The notes under the pieces: model-generated
The model's input: only the letters and a program-made list of their open reading frames with translations
Told to the model about the DNA's origin: nothing
Databases searched by the model: none
Origin: Candidatus Methanoperedens sp.
GTDB lineage: Archaea > Halobacteriota > Methanosarcinia > Methanosarcinales > Methanoperedenaceae
Direction of reading: 5' to 3'
DNA length: 32,000 nt
Assembly (NCBI GenBank): GCA_027460535.1
Contig: JAPZAR010000010.1
Span: 120,001 to 152,000, forward strand
Shown here: one piece after another, positions 9,591 through 29,921 of the stretch
Layout: each line of letters starts with the position of its first letter
Numbering within the stretch: position 1 is the stretch's first letter
Translations under genes and position numbers: made by a program

Positions 9591-10145
9591 ATGGAAACCA
9601 GGATGCCGGTAAAAGAGATAATGACAAGAGACGTTGCTACGATAGAGATAAAAAGCGACGTACCAGTTTTGGCCGCAAAATTGCTTGAGCTTGACGTCGG
9701 CAGTCTTATCGTGACAGACAAAAATCGTCCTGTGGGAATAGTCACGGAGCGTGATATTGTAAGGAAGATCGTGTCCAGGAACATCAAACCAGGGGAAATT
9801 TCCATAAAGGAACTGATGACAACCCCGCTCATAACCATACCTGCTACTGAAGACGTCACAGAAGCCATGCGCAAGATGATGAAAATGCAGATCCGGCGGT
9901 TACCGGTGGTCGAAGGTGGAAAACTGGTGGGTATCGTGACGGACATAGATCTGATCGCGGTCTCAGCCGAAATGGGGGATATATTTTCAGACCTAATAAA
10001 GATGCACCGGGAAAAGATGTTTACAATGGAAACTCCTCAGACGGCTATTAAAGGCATCTGCGAGGAGTGCGGATACATTTTTGATAACCTGATGCTAGTG
10101 GATGGGAAAGTTCTCTGTGAAAGTTGCAGAGAAACTTTGGTTTAA
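9591..10145 (+). CDS. CBS-pair protein with C-terminal CxxC...CxxC zinc ribbon
   Basis: Two CBS motifs (VKEIMTRDVATI...GIVTERDIVRKI; IKELMTTPLITI...GIVTDIDLI) followed by CEECGYIFDNLMLVDGKVLCESC. GGGAGG RBS upstream. Confidence 0.9.
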   Translation: METRMPVKEIMTRDVATIEIKSDVPVLAAKLLELDVGSLIVTDKNRPVGIVTERDIVRKIVSRNIKPGEISIKELMTTPLITIPATEDVTEAMRKMMKMQIRRLPVVEGGKLVGIVTDIDLIAVSAEMGDIFSDLIKMHREKMFTMETPQTAIKGICEECGYIFDNLMLVDGKVLCESCRETLV

Positions 10146-10181
10146 ATAACATATATATACACGGTAAAAGGAGTAAGTTCT

Positions 10182-10970
10182 ATGAAAGTGGAAGAGGTAA
10201 TGACAAGGAACCCTGTTTTTCTGCGCGACTCCGATTTCATGACCCACGCCCGCCAGGTGATGAGGGACCAGCATAAACGGACAATACCTGTCGTGGACAG
10301 CAAGAATAGGGTGATCGGGATACTGACGGAAAAGGATCTCCTGAATATATATTCTACAAGATCCAACGTTACGGTGGAAGGTTTTGCATCTGAATTCCCT
10401 GATGTTTACCCTGGGATGGAAATGATGCAAGCTGCAAAACTCATGATAGACGCAGGATTGGGACGTGTTCCTGTGTTAAAATCAGGGCAGGAGAAGACCA
10501 TAGCAGGAATATTGAGTATTGTGGATATATTCAGGAACTTGAAACTGGATAAAATTCCGGCTAACAAGACCACAGAAAAAACGGTCATGGATATAATGGT
10601 CAAGGATGTGAAGACATGTTCTCCCAAAGACAGTATAGCTAAAGTATGGTTGAACATGAAAACATCGGGTTTCTCAGGATATCCGGTGGTAAGAGATGGT
10701 CAGGTGGTGGGAATGATAACAAGACGCAATATTATCAATGCAGGTTACGCAAGGATAGAGAGAGAAGATGACCACGGGACGAAATCAACCATGTCCCCGC
10801 CGGTTGAAAAAATCATGAGCACACCAGTGTATTCATTATCGCCAGAGACCACTTTAAAGGAAGCTATACAGGCATTCCTGAAGCTTGATGTTGGAAGGCT
10901 TTCAGTGGTGGATAATGGGAAACTGACCGGTATAATTGACAGAAGCGACATAATCAGAGCATTTATTTAA
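10182..10970 (+). CDS. Four-CBS (two Bateman modules) stand-alone protein
   Basis: Four CBS motifs identified by hand. AGGAG RBS upstream. Confidence 0.9.
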   Translation: MKVEEVMTRNPVFLRDSDFMTHARQVMRDQHKRTIPVVDSKNRVIGILTEKDLLNIYSTRSNVTVEGFASEFPDVYPGMEMMQAAKLMIDAGLGRVPVLKSGQEKTIAGILSIVDIFRNLKLDKIPANKTTEKTVMDIMVKDVKTCSPKDSIAKVWLNMKTSGFSGYPVVRDGQVVGMITRRNIINAGYARIEREDDHGTKSTMSPPVEKIMSTPVYSLSPETTLKEAIQAFLKLDVGRLSVVDNGKLTGIIDRSDIIRAFI

Positions 10971-10979
10971 TGGTGTTAT

Positions 10980-11912
10980 ATGAAAAATCAAAAGAGCACT
11001 GTAGCAAGAAAAGAGGTTCGAGATGGATATAACAAGAATATGAAACCTCTTGATTTCAAGTCCAGAATTTCCGAACATCCCGGAGATGTGATGTCCATCG
11101 CATCAAAGGACGTGGTGACCATTCCTCCAACAATGCCGATAATAGATGCGGTCAAATCCATGTCCGTTAACGGGTTCAGGAGGCTTCCAGTAGCGGATGC
11201 TGGTACGAATCGTCTCAAAGGGATCGTGACCTCCCAGGACATTGTGGATTTTCTTGGGGGTGGCCTGAGACACCTGATAGTAAAGAACAGGTTCAAAGGG
11301 AATCTCCTCGCAGCCATTAACGTAAGTATAAGTGAGATCATGGAAGAGAACGTTGTATGTCTGAATGAAAAGGATTCACTCAAGGATGCTTTCAATACCA
11401 TGTTGAAGAAGAATGTCGGCGGGATACCTATCACGGATGACGATAGCGTAGTGAAAGGCATAATCACAGAAAGGGATTTTGTCTTTCTGGCCTCCGATAT
11501 TATCACAGGAAAGTCGGTTGGAGAATATATGAGCAAGAATATCATCACAGCTCCACCCGACATGACCATTGCAACAGCAACAAAATCTATGATCAACAAT
11601 GGTTTCAGGAGGCTTCCTATTATTCGGGATAACGTCCTTATCGGCATAATAACCGCCTCCGATATTCTGCGTTTCCTTGGTAGCGGCGAGATTTTTGAGC
11701 GTCTCGTCACCGGGAACGCTGGAGAAGTCTTCGAAGTTCCTATCCGTACCCTAATAAGGAGAGATGTCATTTTCACACGATCGGATGTGGATATAGGGGA
11801 AGCTGCGAGCATGATGCTCGGGAAAAATGTTGGCTCGCTTCCAGTTCTTGAGGGAGGCGAATTGAAAGGGATCATAACAGAACGCGATATTGTCAGGGCA
11901 ATAGCGCAATAG
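10980..11912 (+). CDS. Four-CBS stand-alone protein (MJ1225-like layout)
   Basis: Four CBS motifs, two of them with the GFRRLPV/GFRRLPI signature. 9-nt gap to the previous gene. Confidence 0.9.
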   Translation: MKNQKSTVARKEVRDGYNKNMKPLDFKSRISEHPGDVMSIASKDVVTIPPTMPIIDAVKSMSVNGFRRLPVADAGTNRLKGIVTSQDIVDFLGGGLRHLIVKNRFKGNLLAAINVSISEIMEENVVCLNEKDSLKDAFNTMLKKNVGGIPITDDDSVVKGIITERDFVFLASDIITGKSVGEYMSKNIITAPPDMTIATATKSMINNGFRRLPIIRDNVLIGIITASDILRFLGSGEIFERLVTGNAGEVFEVPIRTLIRRDVIFTRSDVDIGEAASMMLGKNVGSLPVLEGGELKGIITERDIVRAIAQ

Positions 11913-11922
11913 AGGCACATTT

Positions 11923-12771
11923 ATGAAAATCAAAGAAATAATGAGTTCACCGGTATACGTGGTATCGCCTGAAGAGAATGTAGCCAGGGCAAGGAACCTG
12001 ATGCTTCGCCATAAGATCGGAAAACTGGTGATCGTCGAGGATAACAAGCCCATCGGGATCGTGACCAAGAAAGATATCAGTCGAAGGCTTGATCAGGCAG
12101 AACCGCAATGGCGCCGAAGACCCATAGACCACATTCCCATTCGAAAGGTCATGACAGAAAGCCTTATCACGATTTTTCCAGACGCCACGCCAAAGCAACT
12201 CGCTGAACTGATGATCGAGAATAATATCAGCGGATTGCCTGTGGTAAATGTCAGGAACGAAGTGATCGGGATCGTTACAAAATGGGATTTGATACGATAT
12301 TTTTCAGAACTGGAATTGGATTTAACGGTACAGGATTTGAAAATAGAACCTGCGATCACTGTTCACAGGCACCATACCATCAGCCATATACTTTACGAAC
12401 TTGATACAAATTCGACCGACAGGGCAGTAGTTCTTGAAGATAATGATAAGCCAGTGGGGATCATTACGAGTTCGAACCTGACGTTCACGGAAATGAAGGG
12501 AAAAACCGGCGACCTTCCCCATAAAGAAATAAAAATGACTCGCAAGGAAAGCTCCGCAGGAAGGAAACAGTACAGGTATGTTAAAGACATGCCTCTTGTC
12601 GCGGAAGACATAATGTCCTGCCCTCTACTGACCGTCAATATGGATGATCCGGCAACGCAGGCTGCGGGCATTATGGTAAAAGAAAGAATAAACGGTCTGC
12701 CTGTGCTAAATAACGGATTCATGGGGATACTGACCGGGGATAATATAATAAAGACAATAATGACGCTTTAA
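11923..12771 (+). CDS. Four-CBS stand-alone protein
   Basis: Four CBS motifs. 10-nt gap with GAGG RBS. Confidence 0.9.
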   Translation: MKIKEIMSSPVYVVSPEENVARARNLMLRHKIGKLVIVEDNKPIGIVTKKDISRRLDQAEPQWRRRPIDHIPIRKVMTESLITIFPDATPKQLAELMIENNISGLPVVNVRNEVIGIVTKWDLIRYFSELELDLTVQDLKIEPAITVHRHHTISHILYELDTNSTDRAVVLEDNDKPVGIITSSNLTFTEMKGKTGDLPHKEIKMTRKESSAGRKQYRYVKDMPLVAEDIMSCPLLTVNMDDPATQAAGIMVKERINGLPVLNNGFMGILTGDNIIKTIMTL

Positions 12772-12780
12772 GGTGAGAAC

Positions 12781-13566
12781 ATGAAAGTAAAAGACATAAT
12801 GACAGACCCTATTATTGTGCATAAAGCCGACACAATTTCGCATGCCATGGATTTGATGGAAAAACACGATACACGAAGGCTTCTTGTTGTCAATGGAAGC
12901 GATATCCTGGGTGTGATAACTATGCGAAGCATAGCCCGGAAGCTTGGAACATGGAAGAAGTCAAATCTTCCTGCCTCGTCCCTGCATGTCGCAACCGCTA
13001 CTACTGATCTATTCTCAAAGGTACTTCCCGATACCAGCATAGAGGATGCGATAGCATTGATGGACAGGAAAGGTGGGATTCTCATTGTTACAGACAATGG
13101 AAAGATCCAGGGGTGGGTAACGCCTCATGAGATCCTGAAAAATGCAAAAGCCGCCATAAAGGGTTATGCGGCCGAGATAATGAAGGACCCGATATCTGTA
13201 AGTCCGGCCGAAAGGGTAGCGCATGCACGGCGCCTGATGCTGGACAATGACATAGGAAGGGTTCCCGTTATTAAAAATAACGATGTTGTGGGAATTGTTA
13301 CGGAAAGGGATCTGGCAAGAGGAATGATGAGTTTCAGATCGCTTGTACCTGATAACCAGCAGGATGAGAGGATCCGGAACCTTATAGTGTCAGACATCAT
13401 GACACAGAATGTGAAATCAGTCCGTACAAATACGCCCATATCGGAGGTTATCACGTTGATCCTGAATGATAACATAGGTGGTGTCCCAGTTCTTAACCTG
13501 AAGGACGAGATGGTGGGCATCATAAGCAGGAGGGCGATTATCAGACATCTGGCGGTAAAAGGATGA
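12781..13566 (+). CDS. Four-CBS stand-alone protein
   Basis: Four CBS motifs. 9-nt gap with GGTGA RBS. Confidence 0.9.
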   Translation: MKVKDIMTDPIIVHKADTISHAMDLMEKHDTRRLLVVNGSDILGVITMRSIARKLGTWKKSNLPASSLHVATATTDLFSKVLPDTSIEDAIALMDRKGGILIVTDNGKIQGWVTPHEILKNAKAAIKGYAAEIMKDPISVSPAERVAHARRLMLDNDIGRVPVIKNNDVVGIVTERDLARGMMSFRSLVPDNQQDERIRNLIVSDIMTQNVKSVRTNTPISEVITLILNDNIGGVPVLNLKDEMVGIISRRAIIRHLAVKG

Positions 13567-14732
13567 GACGGGATGTCTCTTCAGAACTGATCAATAAACT
13601 GGATATCGCAAAAATCTCGAAGCTGACGGGTATACCCGAATACAGGATCACTGGCGCAATACAGAGAAAGACGTTACAGTATATTAAATCAAAGCTTGAG
13701 CTTTTCAGGTTCGATAAGCCTATCTCAACAGTCGAAGGTGGCACTTCCATATTCCTTGAGCCCTTTGATATAATCCGGGGTTTTCCTAAAATATCCCGCA
13801 CACTGATGCTGTATCCGGGTATTGCCAGGCATTTCTCTTCCTGCAAGAAGGTATTTGTGGAAGAGAAGATGAACGGCTACAATGTTCGCGTTGCCACGAT
13901 TGGGGATCATATTGTCGGGCTGACGCGAGGAGGTTTTGTATGTCCTTATACGACCGAGAAGGCACGGGAATTACTAAATCGGGAATTTTTTCTGGATAAT
14001 CCCGGTCTCGTGCTATGCGGAGAGATGGTAGGTCCGGACAGTCCATATGTTCCAAAATCATTCTACGATATAGAGTCACTCGAGTTTTTCGCATTCGATA
14101 TACGTGATAAGATATCGGGGAATCCCATGCCTGTATTGAAGCGCCGCAAGCTCCTGGAGGAATACGGTGTCCAATCTGTCAGGCTTTTCGGGGAATACGA
14201 TGTGGAAAATGCACATATCGATATAGCGAAGATCATTAAGGAATTTGGGAACTCGCTGCATGAAGGGGTTGTCATAAAAGACCCGGAAATGGCTCTGCCC
14301 GCTGTAAAATATACGAGTTCGCTCAGCAACTGTGCTGACCTGAAGTATGCTTTTGAATTTTACAACGACTATGGGAGGGACTTTTTCTTTGCAAGGGTAT
14401 GCAGGGAAGCCTTCCAGTCCCTGGAATGGGATGAGGATGAACAAAGAAGACAGGAACGGTGCCTGAGGCTTGGTGAAAGCATACTTTTACCCATGATCAA
14501 GACCATCAAAAATAAGAAAGAAGGCGAGAGGATTTATGAGACTGTCCAGATAAGAGTTAAAAACCTGGATATTGCTAGGGAATTTGAGGATCATCTGAGG
14601 CTGCTTGGGGTGGATGCTGTTTTTGAAAAGCCTGAAAAGATCGGCGATGAATATCTTATCAAGATAAGGAAGATGTATCCAAGCACCAATGATAAAACTG
14701 AATCAATTCTGAGCGGGCAGCTGTGGAGTTGA
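13563..14732 (+). CDS. ATP-dependent RNA ligase, archaeal Pab1020/MthRnl (Rnl3) family
   Basis: Nucleotidyltransferase motifs are present: motif I VEEKMNGYNVRV (KxNG), GEMVG, and motif V HEGVVIKDPE. 389 aa, similar in size to Pab1020. The ATG overlaps the stop of the last CBS gene (ATGA at 13563-13566). Confidence 0.85.
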   Translation: MRRDVSSELINKLDIAKISKLTGIPEYRITGAIQRKTLQYIKSKLELFRFDKPISTVEGGTSIFLEPFDIIRGFPKISRTLMLYPGIARHFSSCKKVFVEEKMNGYNVRVATIGDHIVGLTRGGFVCPYTTEKARELLNREFFLDNPGLVLCGEMVGPDSPYVPKSFYDIESLEFFAFDIRDKISGNPMPVLKRRKLLEEYGVQSVRLFGEYDVENAHIDIAKIIKEFGNSLHEGVVIKDPEMALPAVKYTSSLSNCADLKYAFEFYNDYGRDFFFARVCREAFQSLEWDEDEQRRQERCLRLGESILLPMIKTIKNKKEGERIYETVQIRVKNLDIAREFEDHLRLLGVDAVFEKPEKIGDEYLIKIRKMYPSTNDKTESILSGQLWS

Positions 14733-14758: not shown

Positions 14759-14770
14759 CAATATTTATAT
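14759..14770 (+). promoter_or_regulatory. TATA-like box (aatatttatatc) about 30 nt upstream of ATG 14796
   Basis: It sits in the 63-nt gap after the RNA ligase, which suggests the desulfurase has its own promoter. Confidence 0.3.
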
Positions 14771-21161: not shown

Positions 21162-21233
21162 GCCAAGGTGGCGGAGAGGCTACGCAATCGCCTGCAGAGC
21201 GATTCCATTCCGGTTCGAGTCCGGACCTTGGCT
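21162..21233 (+). tRNA. tRNA-Cys (anticodon GCA), 72 nt, no intron, CCA not encoded
   Basis: Hand-folded cloverleaf. Acceptor GCCAAGG/CCTTGGC; D arm GCGG-AGAGGCT-ACGC; anticodon arm ATCGC-CTGCAGA-GCGAT; variable TCCAT; T arm TCCGG-TTCGAGT-CCGGA; discriminator T. A T5 run at 21245-21249 follows. Confidence 0.9.
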
Positions 21234-29042: not shown

Positions 29043-29474
29043 CTATGATGCCAATACAATTACATCAATTTCACTTTTCAAGCGTTCAAAAGCTGAATCT
29101 GTAGTTACTATCAGTGCTTCTTCTCGTTTTGCAATTGCTGCCAATAATAAATCAGCTGCCCCGAGTCCCCCGTATCTACTCCCAATTTCTATGGCTTGCC
29201 TGTGTATTTCTTCGTTTTCGTAGATTACCTGCCAGGATGATTTAAGAATCATTTCCAAAACATTAAAAGCCACTCCAATACCTTCATTCTTGGCAATCCA
29301 TACAAGATGCTCGGTCAGGATTACACGCGGAATCGATAGCTGCGTTCCAGCTTCGACGTCTGAAAAACATTTCTTAATTGTTTGGATGGTAGGATGATAT
29401 GAAATCTTCTGTATGGCAGGGTCGTTGATGTTCCGCCATATCTGATAGATATTGGTGTCAAAAGCGTACTTCAT
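29043..29474 (-). CDS. vapC: PIN-domain toxin VapC
   Basis: MKYAFDTNIY carries the N-terminal acidic DTN motif, and IVTTDSAFERL is the C-terminal PIN motif. 143 aa. The ATG overlaps the vapB stop (29471-29474). Confidence 0.85.
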   Translation of the reverse strand: MKYAFDTNIYQIWRNINDPAIQKISYHPTIQTIKKCFSDVEAGTQLSIPRVILTEHLVWIAKNEGIGVAFNVLEMILKSSWQVIYENEEIHRQAIEIGSRYGGLGAADLLLAAIAKREEALIVTTDSAFERLKSEIDVIVLAS

Positions 29475-29734
29475 TCCTCCCCCGGCATATCCTTTTTGCC
29501 TGCTTTGTCGATGTTCCGCTCAAATATCAGGGATTTTTTGAGCGTACCTTTTGTCACTTTTTCAAGCTGAAGATTGAAAACGCTTGTTTTTTGTTTGGTA
29601 AGTATAAGAGTGTGATTTTTTACCCCAAGGATTAACTTATCATGAGGATGTATGCCGATTTCTTCACGGATTTTCTCAGGTATTAATATCCTTCCATTGG
29701 CATCTACCTCGGCAATTTCGACTTCGGAACTCAT
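29471..29734 (-). CDS. vapB: AbrB/SpoVT-type antitoxin VapB
   Basis: EVDANGRILIPEKIREEIGIHPHDKLILGV is a swapped-hairpin AbrB-like motif. I prefer ATG 29734 (87 aa) because a TATA-like box lies inside the longer track ORF. Confidence 0.8.
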   Translation of the reverse strand: MSSEVEIAEVDANGRILIPEKIREEIGIHPHDKLILGVKNHTLILTKQKTSVFNLQLEKVTKGTLKKSLIFERNIDKAGKKDMPGEE

Positions 29735-29758
29735 ATTATGGATATTATGACTGGCGGG

Positions 29759-29772
29759 TATATAAATAAATG
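29759..29772 (-). promoter_or_regulatory. TATA-like box (minus strand TTTATTTATATA) about 30 nt upstream of vapB ATG 29734
   Basis: The spacing implies a leaderless or very short-leader vapBC transcript. Confidence 0.4.
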
Positions 29773-29921
29773 GTGCAGTCGGCATTATCTCTGGATAAGA
29801 TAATGCTGCTGAACATCGGCGCCGCCTGTGAGGTGATGGGAGGGTGGGTTTTAGAAGAGGTCTGTTGCAGGTTCTAATCTTTGGTTATAAGTCGCCAGAT
29901 TATCTTTTAAGATGATGGGAA

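Follow-up and report, generated by a model that had tools for sequence, protein, structure and literature searches.

The locus at positions 9591–14732 of a 32,000-nucleotide (nt) stretch of Candidatus Methanoperedens sp. DNA (contig JAPZAR010000010.1, positions 120,001–152,000; hereafter the window) is, as read from its sequence, a ribosome-hibernation (sri) cluster, in which a gene for a dual-CBS/zinc-ribbon protein is followed by sriA, sriB, sriC, and sriD and then by a gene for an Rnl3-family RNA ligase overlapping the sriD stop codon. Protein comparisons make it almost certain that the second to fifth genes encode orthologues of SriA–D and that the sixth encodes an Rnl3. The CBS array (sriABCD/ARC) and the ligase family are already known, and what appears to be new is the place of Rnl3 as the conserved last gene of the array in several archaeal orders. 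Archaeal ribosome hibernation factors were discovered only in 2024–2026; biochemical work on Rnl3 ligases dates back to 2008, and one of them, MthRnl, is sold as a reagent. A preliminary description of the locus had supposed that the linkage between the CBS genes and the ligase, if conserved, was undescribed. This holds for the ligase, whose operon link with sri is mentioned in none of the archaeal hibernation or Rnl3 papers that we found (literature searches on the combined terms returned nothing, and for MTH1222–MTH1226 only the MthRnl paper was found, naming MTH1221 alone), but not for the CBS array, which was published in 2026 as sriABCD.

Identity of the CBS genes

SriA–D are single ribosomal subunit inhibitors of Methanosarcina acetivorans, encoded by MA4648–4651 in the operon sriABCD (Nissley et al., Nat Commun 2026, PMC13454478), and the M. 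acetivorans 70S ribosome has been solved with SriA–SriB, with SriD, and with SriC–SriD (PDB 9ZNF, 9ZNG, and 9ZNI, respectively; PMC13454478). With the chains of these entries assigned to SriA–D through the data-availability statement of that paper, each of genes 2–5 of the window has a different Sri chain as its top match, at 243–314 bits, versus at most 83 bits for the non-cognate Sri chains. Gene 2 matches 9znf_4 over its full length (E 3.9e-71, 243 bits; the next Sri chain, 9znf_5, reaches only 61 bits), gene 3 matches 9znf_5 (E 1e-92), gene 4 matches 9zni_6 (E 2.4e-79), and gene 5 matches 9zng_7 and 9zni_7 (E 9e-93). The gene order in the window is sriA, sriB, sriC, sriD, which is the commonest arrangement, found in 529 species (PMC13454478).

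In M. acetivorans, SriA and the N-terminal extension of SriB occupy the A and P sites, the peptidyl transferase centre, and the exit tunnel of the large subunit, and SriC and SriD occupy the P/E and A sites of the small subunit, with SriD in the A site blocking the mRNA channel and the basic loop of SriC contacting uS11 and holding the 3′ end of 16S rRNA (PMC13454478). Both basic elements are found in the window proteins. The N-terminal 36 residues of SriB form an extension with 9 Lys/Arg residues, and the SriB motif (D/E)FKSRISEHPGD is kept in alignments from Methanocellales to Methanothermobacter; the loop between CBS3 and CBS4 of SriC contains 10 Lys/Arg in 40 residues, with the conserved pattern K-IKM-RK-S-AG-K-YR. 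The extension and the loop are both conserved in alignments covering six named lineages. As for the nucleotide pockets, the ribose-binding Asp is present in SriC in CBS1 and CBS2 only (D51, D122), with Asn in CBS3 and CBS4 (N185, N274), and SriD retains the T-x-x-D pair in CBS3 only (D177), with S50 at that place in CBS1. The SriC pattern agrees with the two adenosine monophosphate (AMP) sites reported in ARC-P of Methanolobus; ARC-P and ARC-A are orthologues of SriC and SriD, ARC-A binding one AMP via D176 and having N50 in CBS1, and AMP retains both proteins on the ribosome, from which adenosine triphosphate (ATP) releases them (bioRxiv 10.64898/2026.01.19.700304).

Each M. acetivorans Sri protein inhibits translation in vitro, and deletion of sri leads to a longer lag after long stationary phase, depletion of the small subunit, and loss of parts of 16S and 23S rRNA; the Sri proteins protect rRNA in long stationary phase (PMC13454478). 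Expression of sriA, sriC, and sriD is induced in MCR-limited M. acetivorans. By analogy with the M. acetivorans and Methanolobus orthologues, the Sri proteins of the window are predicted to bind the ribosome, inhibit translation, and protect rRNA.

The first gene of the cluster, given in the preliminary description as a CBS pair with a zinc ribbon, does encode two CBS motifs followed by a four-Cys ribbon at the C-terminus (CEECG-x15-CESC, that is, CxxC-x15-CxxC), the plan of Ta0289-type proteins (PDB 1PVM, 2QH1, 3GHD). Its similarity to Ta0289 (1PVM/2QH1) is modest (E 6e-12, residues 5–153), and no ribosome or sri link has been reported for that type, whose ribbon in Ta0289 binds iron. The ribbon cysteines are retained in the Methanothermobacter and P0126-lineage orthologues. 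The dual-CBS gene comes first in each of the 80 full arrays counted (see below) as well as in the Methanothermobacter, Methanohalarchaeum, and P0126-lineage loci, and is the counterpart of M. acetivorans MA4647.

Calling of open reading frames (ORFs) returned six of them on the plus strand, with coordinates identical to those first listed (Table 1), so that the six-gene layout of the preliminary description stands, as do its intergenic gaps of 36, 9, 10, and 9 nt, the ATGA overlap of the last pair, and its count of 18 CBS motifs (2 + 4 + 4 + 4 + 4 by Pfam PF00571, with the same 18 stretches recovered by our own CBS hidden Markov model built from the window proteins). By both profiles, genes 2–5 each encode one stand-alone polypeptide with four tandem CBS motifs. 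A Shine–Dalgarno (SD)-like motif had been assigned to every gene; this applies to the five CBS genes (GGGAGG, AAGGAG, GGTG, GAGG, and AGGTGA) but not to the ligase gene, which has only AAAGG directly abutting its ATG, consistent with reinitiation via the ATGA overlap. The CBS paralogues share pairwise identities of only 25–37%, and the DNA repeats found in the operon are short and encode the CBS G-I-I-T-E-R-D motif, indicating that the paralogues are old; a recent tandem duplication of the CBS genes is thereby excluded.

Table 1. Features of the sri–ligase locus, in window coordinates
Feature	Position	Strand	Remarks
Dual-CBS/Zn-ribbon protein	9591–10145	+	184 aa, 2 CBS; counterpart of M. acetivorans MA4647
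TATA-like boxes TTTAAATA, TATATATA	10141–10159	+	30–41 nt 5′ of sriA; possible internal promoter
sriA orthologue	10182–10970	+	262 aa, 4 CBS; top PDB match 9znf_4
sriB orthologue, long form	10980–11912	+	310 aa, 4 CBS; top PDB match 9znf_5
sriC orthologue (ARC-P equivalent)	11923–12771	+	282 aa, 4 CBS; top PDB match 9zni_6
sriD orthologue (ARC-A equivalent)	12781–13566	+	261 aa, 4 CBS; PDB 9zng_7, 9zni_7
ATGA, sriD stop/rnl3 start overlap	13563–13566	+	from ORF coordinates
Rnl3-family ATP-dependent RNA ligase, MthRnl/Pab1020 type	13563–14732	+	389 aa; nucleotidyltransferase and C-terminal dimerisation domains

The RNA ligase

The assignment of the sixth gene to the Pab1020/MthRnl type, with the KxNG, GEMVG, and EGVVIKD motifs intact, is borne out by family profiles and by a 59-sequence family alignment. 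The protein matches RNA_ligase (PF09414, E 1e-26) and TIGR01209 (393 bits), carries the Pab1020-type C-terminal dimerisation domain at full model length (Lig_C, PF18330, E 2.3e-44, residues 262–386), and aligns end to end with MthRnl (PDB 5D1O; E 3e-98, 45% identity over 375 residues). KMNG with the catalytic lysine, GEMVG (motif III), EGVVIKD (motif IV), and the motif V lysine are all present; residues E100, K102, G105, N107, E154, G157, E234, G235, K239, and K249 fall on invariant or nearly invariant columns of the alignment, and the catalytic residues also align with those of MthRnl. The start codon is supported by Methanoperedens orthologues of 70–79% identity, which match from residue 1.

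Recombinant MthRnl is active without CBS proteins (PMC2577357). It is purified largely in pre-adenylylated form and needs no added ATP to circularise RNA; at 1 mM, ATP suppresses both sealing and circle formation, and AppRNA accumulates. Rnl3 is known to act on small single-stranded RNAs with their two ends kept near each other, and knockout of Rnl3 in Thermococcus kodakarensis leads to loss of C/D box small RNA (sRNA) circles and to accumulation of aberrant rRNA fragments.

Several neighbours of Rnl3 genes at other loci may be recorded here. In one Thermococcus sp., the single informative locus of this kind (L089:7388–9143), Rnl3 follows the uL16 gene (PF00252) on the same strand, 64 nt separating the two; one of the ribosomal contacts of SriA is a uL16 loop, and this adjacency may represent a second ribosome-related context for the ligase. 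A gene for a predicted RNase, PIN_5 (PF08745), lies convergent and immediately downstream of the ligase gene in two sri-less loci and 4 kb upstream of it in a third (L092:9099–9710, L097:7301–7936, and L091:3609–4196), which hints at a recurring nuclease–ligase pairing. In Methanothermobacter (L087:13419–15216), fibrillarin and Nop5, proteins of C/D box small ribonucleoproteins, are encoded on the opposite strand, about 4–6 kb downstream of the MthRnl gene; C/D box sRNAs are the known Rnl3 substrates, and the proximity may be coincidental.

Conservation of the sri–ligase linkage

The neighbourhood of Rnl3 genes was surveyed in two scans, each comprising the 80 loci closest to its first query: one over species-representative genomes with a diverse Rnl3 alignment, which returned loci of Methanoperedenaceae, Methanosarcinaceae, ANME-2, and Methanocellales, and one over metagenomes centred on MthRnl, in which the loci nearest MthRnl (54–98% identity) were taken as Methanobacteriales-type. 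The Methanosarcinales/Methanocellales and Methanobacteriales-like lineages were thus densely sampled, and the remainder of the Rnl3 family was sampled through ten single look-ups. Neighbourhoods were mapped with our own ORF calls and profiles, the array counts being limited to loci that have 6 kb or more of upstream sequence. Among the 53 such loci of the genome scan, 41 carry the full six-gene array, 10 a partial one, and 2 no sri genes; the corresponding numbers for the 43 loci of the metagenome scan are 39, 4, and 0. Combined, sri-type CBS genes stand upstream of the ligase in 94/96 loci and the full array in 80/96, and in all full arrays every gene best matches the window paralogue of the same position. 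By comparison, the 629 kb of sequence downstream of 90 ligase loci contain a single CBS-only ORF, indicating that the adjacency is not due to chance. The linkage proposed from this one genome is therefore conserved well beyond it, with CBS-only genes enriched on the upstream side.

The ordered array (dual-CBS, sriA–D, rnl3) is present in Methanoperedenaceae, Methanosarcinaceae, Methanocellales, Methanothermobacter, and Methanohalarchaeum, the last with a full array in a single look-up. In Methanothermobacter, for which the preliminary description had mentioned CBS genes beside the ligase, five of them (187, 269, 313, 281, and 272 aa) do lie directly upstream of MthRnl (MTH1221), and they are 1:1 orthologous to the five of the window (129–240 bits versus at most 92 bits for paralogues), which implies that the array is ancient. 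Three further lineages have arrays cut down to sriBCD, to two CBS genes, or to CBS1 and a short SriB; the ligase gene is still last in all three and overlaps its predecessor. A 4-nt overlap like that of the window recurs in most Methanoperedens loci; Methanocellales, Methanococcoides, Methanomethylovorans, and the lineages P0130 and P0126 have it as well. The flanks of the array differ entirely between lineages, so that it is the block, rather than the region, that is conserved.

Some loci depart from this arrangement in detail. In the P0126 lineage (L085:3511–4518), CBS1, the short SriB gene, and the ligase gene form the reduced cluster, 9 nt beyond which a DUF1464 (PF07318) gene starts in the same orientation. 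In five Methanolobus loci (L064, L076, L080, L082, and L084), sriA is missing, sometimes together with sriB, and the ligase gene starts 15–16 nt after the sriD (arcA) orthologue. The gene inserted between sriD and the ligase gene in Methanosarcina encodes 250–285 aa, its DUF124/AIM24-like label being derived from the start of the sequence only (L042:8887–9684; L065:7153–9328), and M. hadiensis has an additional 424-aa transposon-like ORF at this place; in Methanosarcina the operon is broken and the neighbourhood kept. In two Methanosarcinaceae genomes (L058, L066), the ligase gene follows an unrelated gene for a 286-aa membrane protein, with sri absent within 10 kb, and one Methanosarcinales metagenome-assembled genome (binchicken_co158_90) has two Rnl3-bearing contigs (L069 and L075); some genomes may thus hold a second or relocated copy of Rnl3.

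Transcription signals and other features of the window

The window was scanned for TATA-like boxes (TTTATATA, with at most one mismatch), matches to such a motif being weak evidence of a promoter. Boxes precede the first gene, sriA, and the next downstream gene (SufS-like), the last box lying at 14764, 32 nt 5′ of that gene, which suggests that the transcription unit ends after the ligase gene. The boxes before sriA may constitute an internal promoter, and they are consistent with M. acetivorans, in which the dual-CBS gene MA4647 adjoins sriA upstream and is transcribed separately from sriABCD (PMC13454478). An internal promoter before 13563, which the preliminary description had named as a sign of separate transcripts, was not indicated by this weak criterion: TATA-like boxes are absent between 10963 and 13563, so that none stands ahead of the ligase gene. 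The pattern of boxes fits, without proving, a single sriABCD–rnl3 transcript. A sigma-70 promoter and terminator scan was discarded and replaced by the TATA scan, since its promoter counts were at chance level and the model is inapplicable to archaea.

An Rfam scan of the whole window found no RNA family above threshold, and the sole tRNA in the window is a tRNA-Cys at 21162; neither scan pointed to a C/D box sRNA or another RNA partner at the locus. Unrelated to the sri–ligase cluster, two overlapping minus-strand reading frames at 29043–29785 are arranged as VapBC-type toxin–antitoxin pairs usually are: a 104-aa ORF comes first, followed directly by a small gene for a PIN-domain protein of 143 aa (PF01850).

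Discussion

The closest known system is that of M. acetivorans, which shares with the window four tandem 4-CBS genes in the same order (E 4e-71 to 9e-93), the N-terminal extension of SriB, the basic loop of SriC, and the upstream dual-CBS gene. Unlike in M. acetivorans, sriA–sriD of the window are packed at 9–10 nt with the ligase gene overlapping sriD, whereas the M. acetivorans operon was reported as sriABCD only, and Methanosarcina loci have the opposite-strand gene before the ligase gene. The Methanolobus ARC resembles SriC and SriD of the window in its canonical pockets, two in SriC (CBS1, CBS2) and one in SriD (CBS3), but was described as a two-factor system, the nearby ligase not being discussed (bioRxiv 10.64898/2026.01.19.700304). 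Other CBS-based hibernation factors related to SriA and SriC, namely Dri of Pyrobaculum (PDB 9E6Q) and HibA/AHA (CBS plus HPF/RaiA), are single fused proteins, unlike the four-gene sri array, and no ligase link has been reported for them; hibA and sri rarely co-occur (PMC13454478). The AMPK-gamma-like 4-CBS protein MJ1225 of M. jannaschii (PDB 3KH5) scores 219 bits against SriB of the window versus 75–89 bits against the other paralogues and aligns from SriB residue 37, that is, without the N-terminal extension, and thus looks like an orthologue of the short SriB type distinguished in the Sri study. As for the ligase, the architecture is the same as in the known members of the Rnl3 family (MthRnl, MTH1221, 5D1O; Pab1020, 2VUG; TkoRnl, TK1545; Palaeococcus Rnl, 8UCE), with no differences in the protein itself; operon context has been described for no member, and genetic data exist solely for the Thermococcales Rnl3, which have no sri genes around them.

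We consider it somewhat probable that the locus is a sri cluster with Rnl3 as a member of the hibernation operon that seals or circularises stable RNAs. In such a scheme, Sri proteins would bind vacant ribosomes under energy limitation in two alternative pairs, blocking the functional centres and protecting rRNA, and the ligase, presumably made from the same transcript as the sri genes, would serve the same dormancy programme by sealing or circularising stable RNAs with 5′-phosphate and 3′-OH ends. C/D box sRNAs and rRNA that is nicked or fragmented are candidate substrates, perhaps along with other RNAs; once sealed, their ends would escape exonucleases while the ribosomes are parked. Since MthRnl is obtained pre-adenylylated and 1 mM ATP suppresses its sealing, net ligation would be favoured at low ATP, the condition under which the Sri proteins bind as well; the CBS proteins themselves would not be regulators of the ligase. 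The placing of the ligase in the dormancy programme draws on this effect of ATP, on the sRNA and rRNA phenotype of the T. kodakarensis knockout, and on the escape of closed ends from exonucleases, an argument that the authors of the Sri study made for circular 23S rRNA (PMC13454478), which is attributed to EndA and RtcB, not Rnl3. Whether the ligase is functionally tied to hibernation or RNA preservation at all we regard as nearly evenly poised, leaning slightly to the negative.

Several points weigh against this scheme. The T. kodakarensis knockout shows normal growth in rich medium, and the lag phenotype of M. acetivorans ΔsriABCD is improved by overexpression of sriAB alone (PMC13454478), which indicates no need for the ligase. 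Six sampled Rnl3 lineages (Thermococcus, Pyrolobus, three other archaeal lineages, and one bacterial homologue) are without sri neighbours, Methanosarcina has the opposite-strand DUF124-like gene between sriD and the ligase gene, and two Methanosarcinaceae loci have the ligase gene in another context; because of this insertion and of the relocated ligases, co-transcription is not universal. For the organism of the window, we infer co-transcription from gene spacing and motif scans only.

The preliminary description had proposed that the CBS proteins may assemble into hetero-oligomeric sensors of adenylates or S-adenosylmethionine and that these gate the ligase or serve as its scaffold, which would tie RNA circularisation or repair to the energy charge. 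Part of this agrees with the published orthologues, which form hetero-pairs and, in the case of SriC and SriD, sense AMP and ATP, but their demonstrated target is the ribosome, not the ligase (PMC13454478; bioRxiv 10.64898/2026.01.19.700304). Such gating would accord with the conserved adjacency of genes that look translationally coupled, with pockets holding canonical T-x-x-D pairs, and with the sensitivity of Rnl3 to ATP in vitro. However, the ribosome-binding elements of SriB and SriC are retained in the window, and all four 4-CBS proteins are orthologues of proteins seen on the ribosome by cryo-electron microscopy; MthRnl is fully active alone (PMC2577357) though all five CBS genes adjoin its gene; sriD and the ligase gene are split in Methanosarcina; and Rnl3 lacks CBS neighbours in the six lineages named above, Thermococcus and Pyrolobus among them. 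We therefore regard gating or scaffolding of the ligase by the CBS proteins as very improbable. A direct physical coupling, in which the ligase is recruited to Sri-bound ribosomes (e.g., via SriD or the dual-CBS/Zn-ribbon protein) and repairs or joins rRNA ends there, is less remote than gating and still unlikely. The sriD stop/rnl3 start overlap in many lineages favours the two proteins being made together in a fixed stoichiometry, SriC holds the 16S 3′ end, Δsri cells lose parts of 16S and 23S rRNA, and aberrant rRNA fragments accumulate in the Rnl knockout, all of which would suit such a recruitment. Yet the ligase is not listed in the published 70S–Sri reconstructions and has no match in 9ZNF, 9ZNG, or 9ZNI, complexes that were reconstituted with added Sri only; gene separation is tolerated in Methanosarcina; and the known Rnl3 substrates are the small single-stranded RNAs with closely held ends.

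A somewhat better, if still minor, chance is to be given to the absence of any functional link, the arrangement being ancestral synteny or a transferred block kept by compact archaeal genomes. Linked and unlinked lineages are interspersed on the ligase tree, the unlinked P0129 and P0124 lying between linked ones, the arrangement is decaying in Methanosarcina, and the ligase is missing from the hibernation studies. Against mere synteny, order and strand are the same in lineages as far apart as Methanobacteriales, Methanosarcinales, Methanocellales, and Methanonatronarchaeia despite the replacement of both flanks, the ligase gene remains last even where the sri set has come down to two or three genes, and many lineages have kept the stop/start codon overlap. 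The favoured reading of Rnl3 as a member of the hibernation operon also has a bolder form, which we put forward as speculation more doubtful than credible: Rnl3 and the dual-CBS/Zn-ribbon protein would be overlooked fifth and sixth Sri components, methanogens would combine the protein plugs of their ribosomes with an RNA ligase dedicated to the purpose, the ligase closing or repairing RNA ends of the translation apparatus (rRNA nicks, C/D box guide RNAs) in energy starvation, and the Zn-ribbon CBS protein acting as an extra sensor or ribosome binder.

The sri cluster with its apparently translationally coupled ligase gene and conserved Zn-ribbon CBS gene is a well-supported lead on the physiological role of Rnl3, and the conserved operon offers a testable idea for that role in methanogens, namely RNA preservation in dormancy. 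The hibernation system itself may have more parts than the four (Sri) or two (ARC) described. A caution follows for genetics in Methanolobus: with the ligase gene starting 15–16 nt after sriD/arcA, the published replacement of arcA/arcP by a puromycin cassette may alter ligase expression through polar effects. Methanoperedens, ANME-2, and methanogens are chronically energy-limited, and their dormancy machinery bears on methane cycling.

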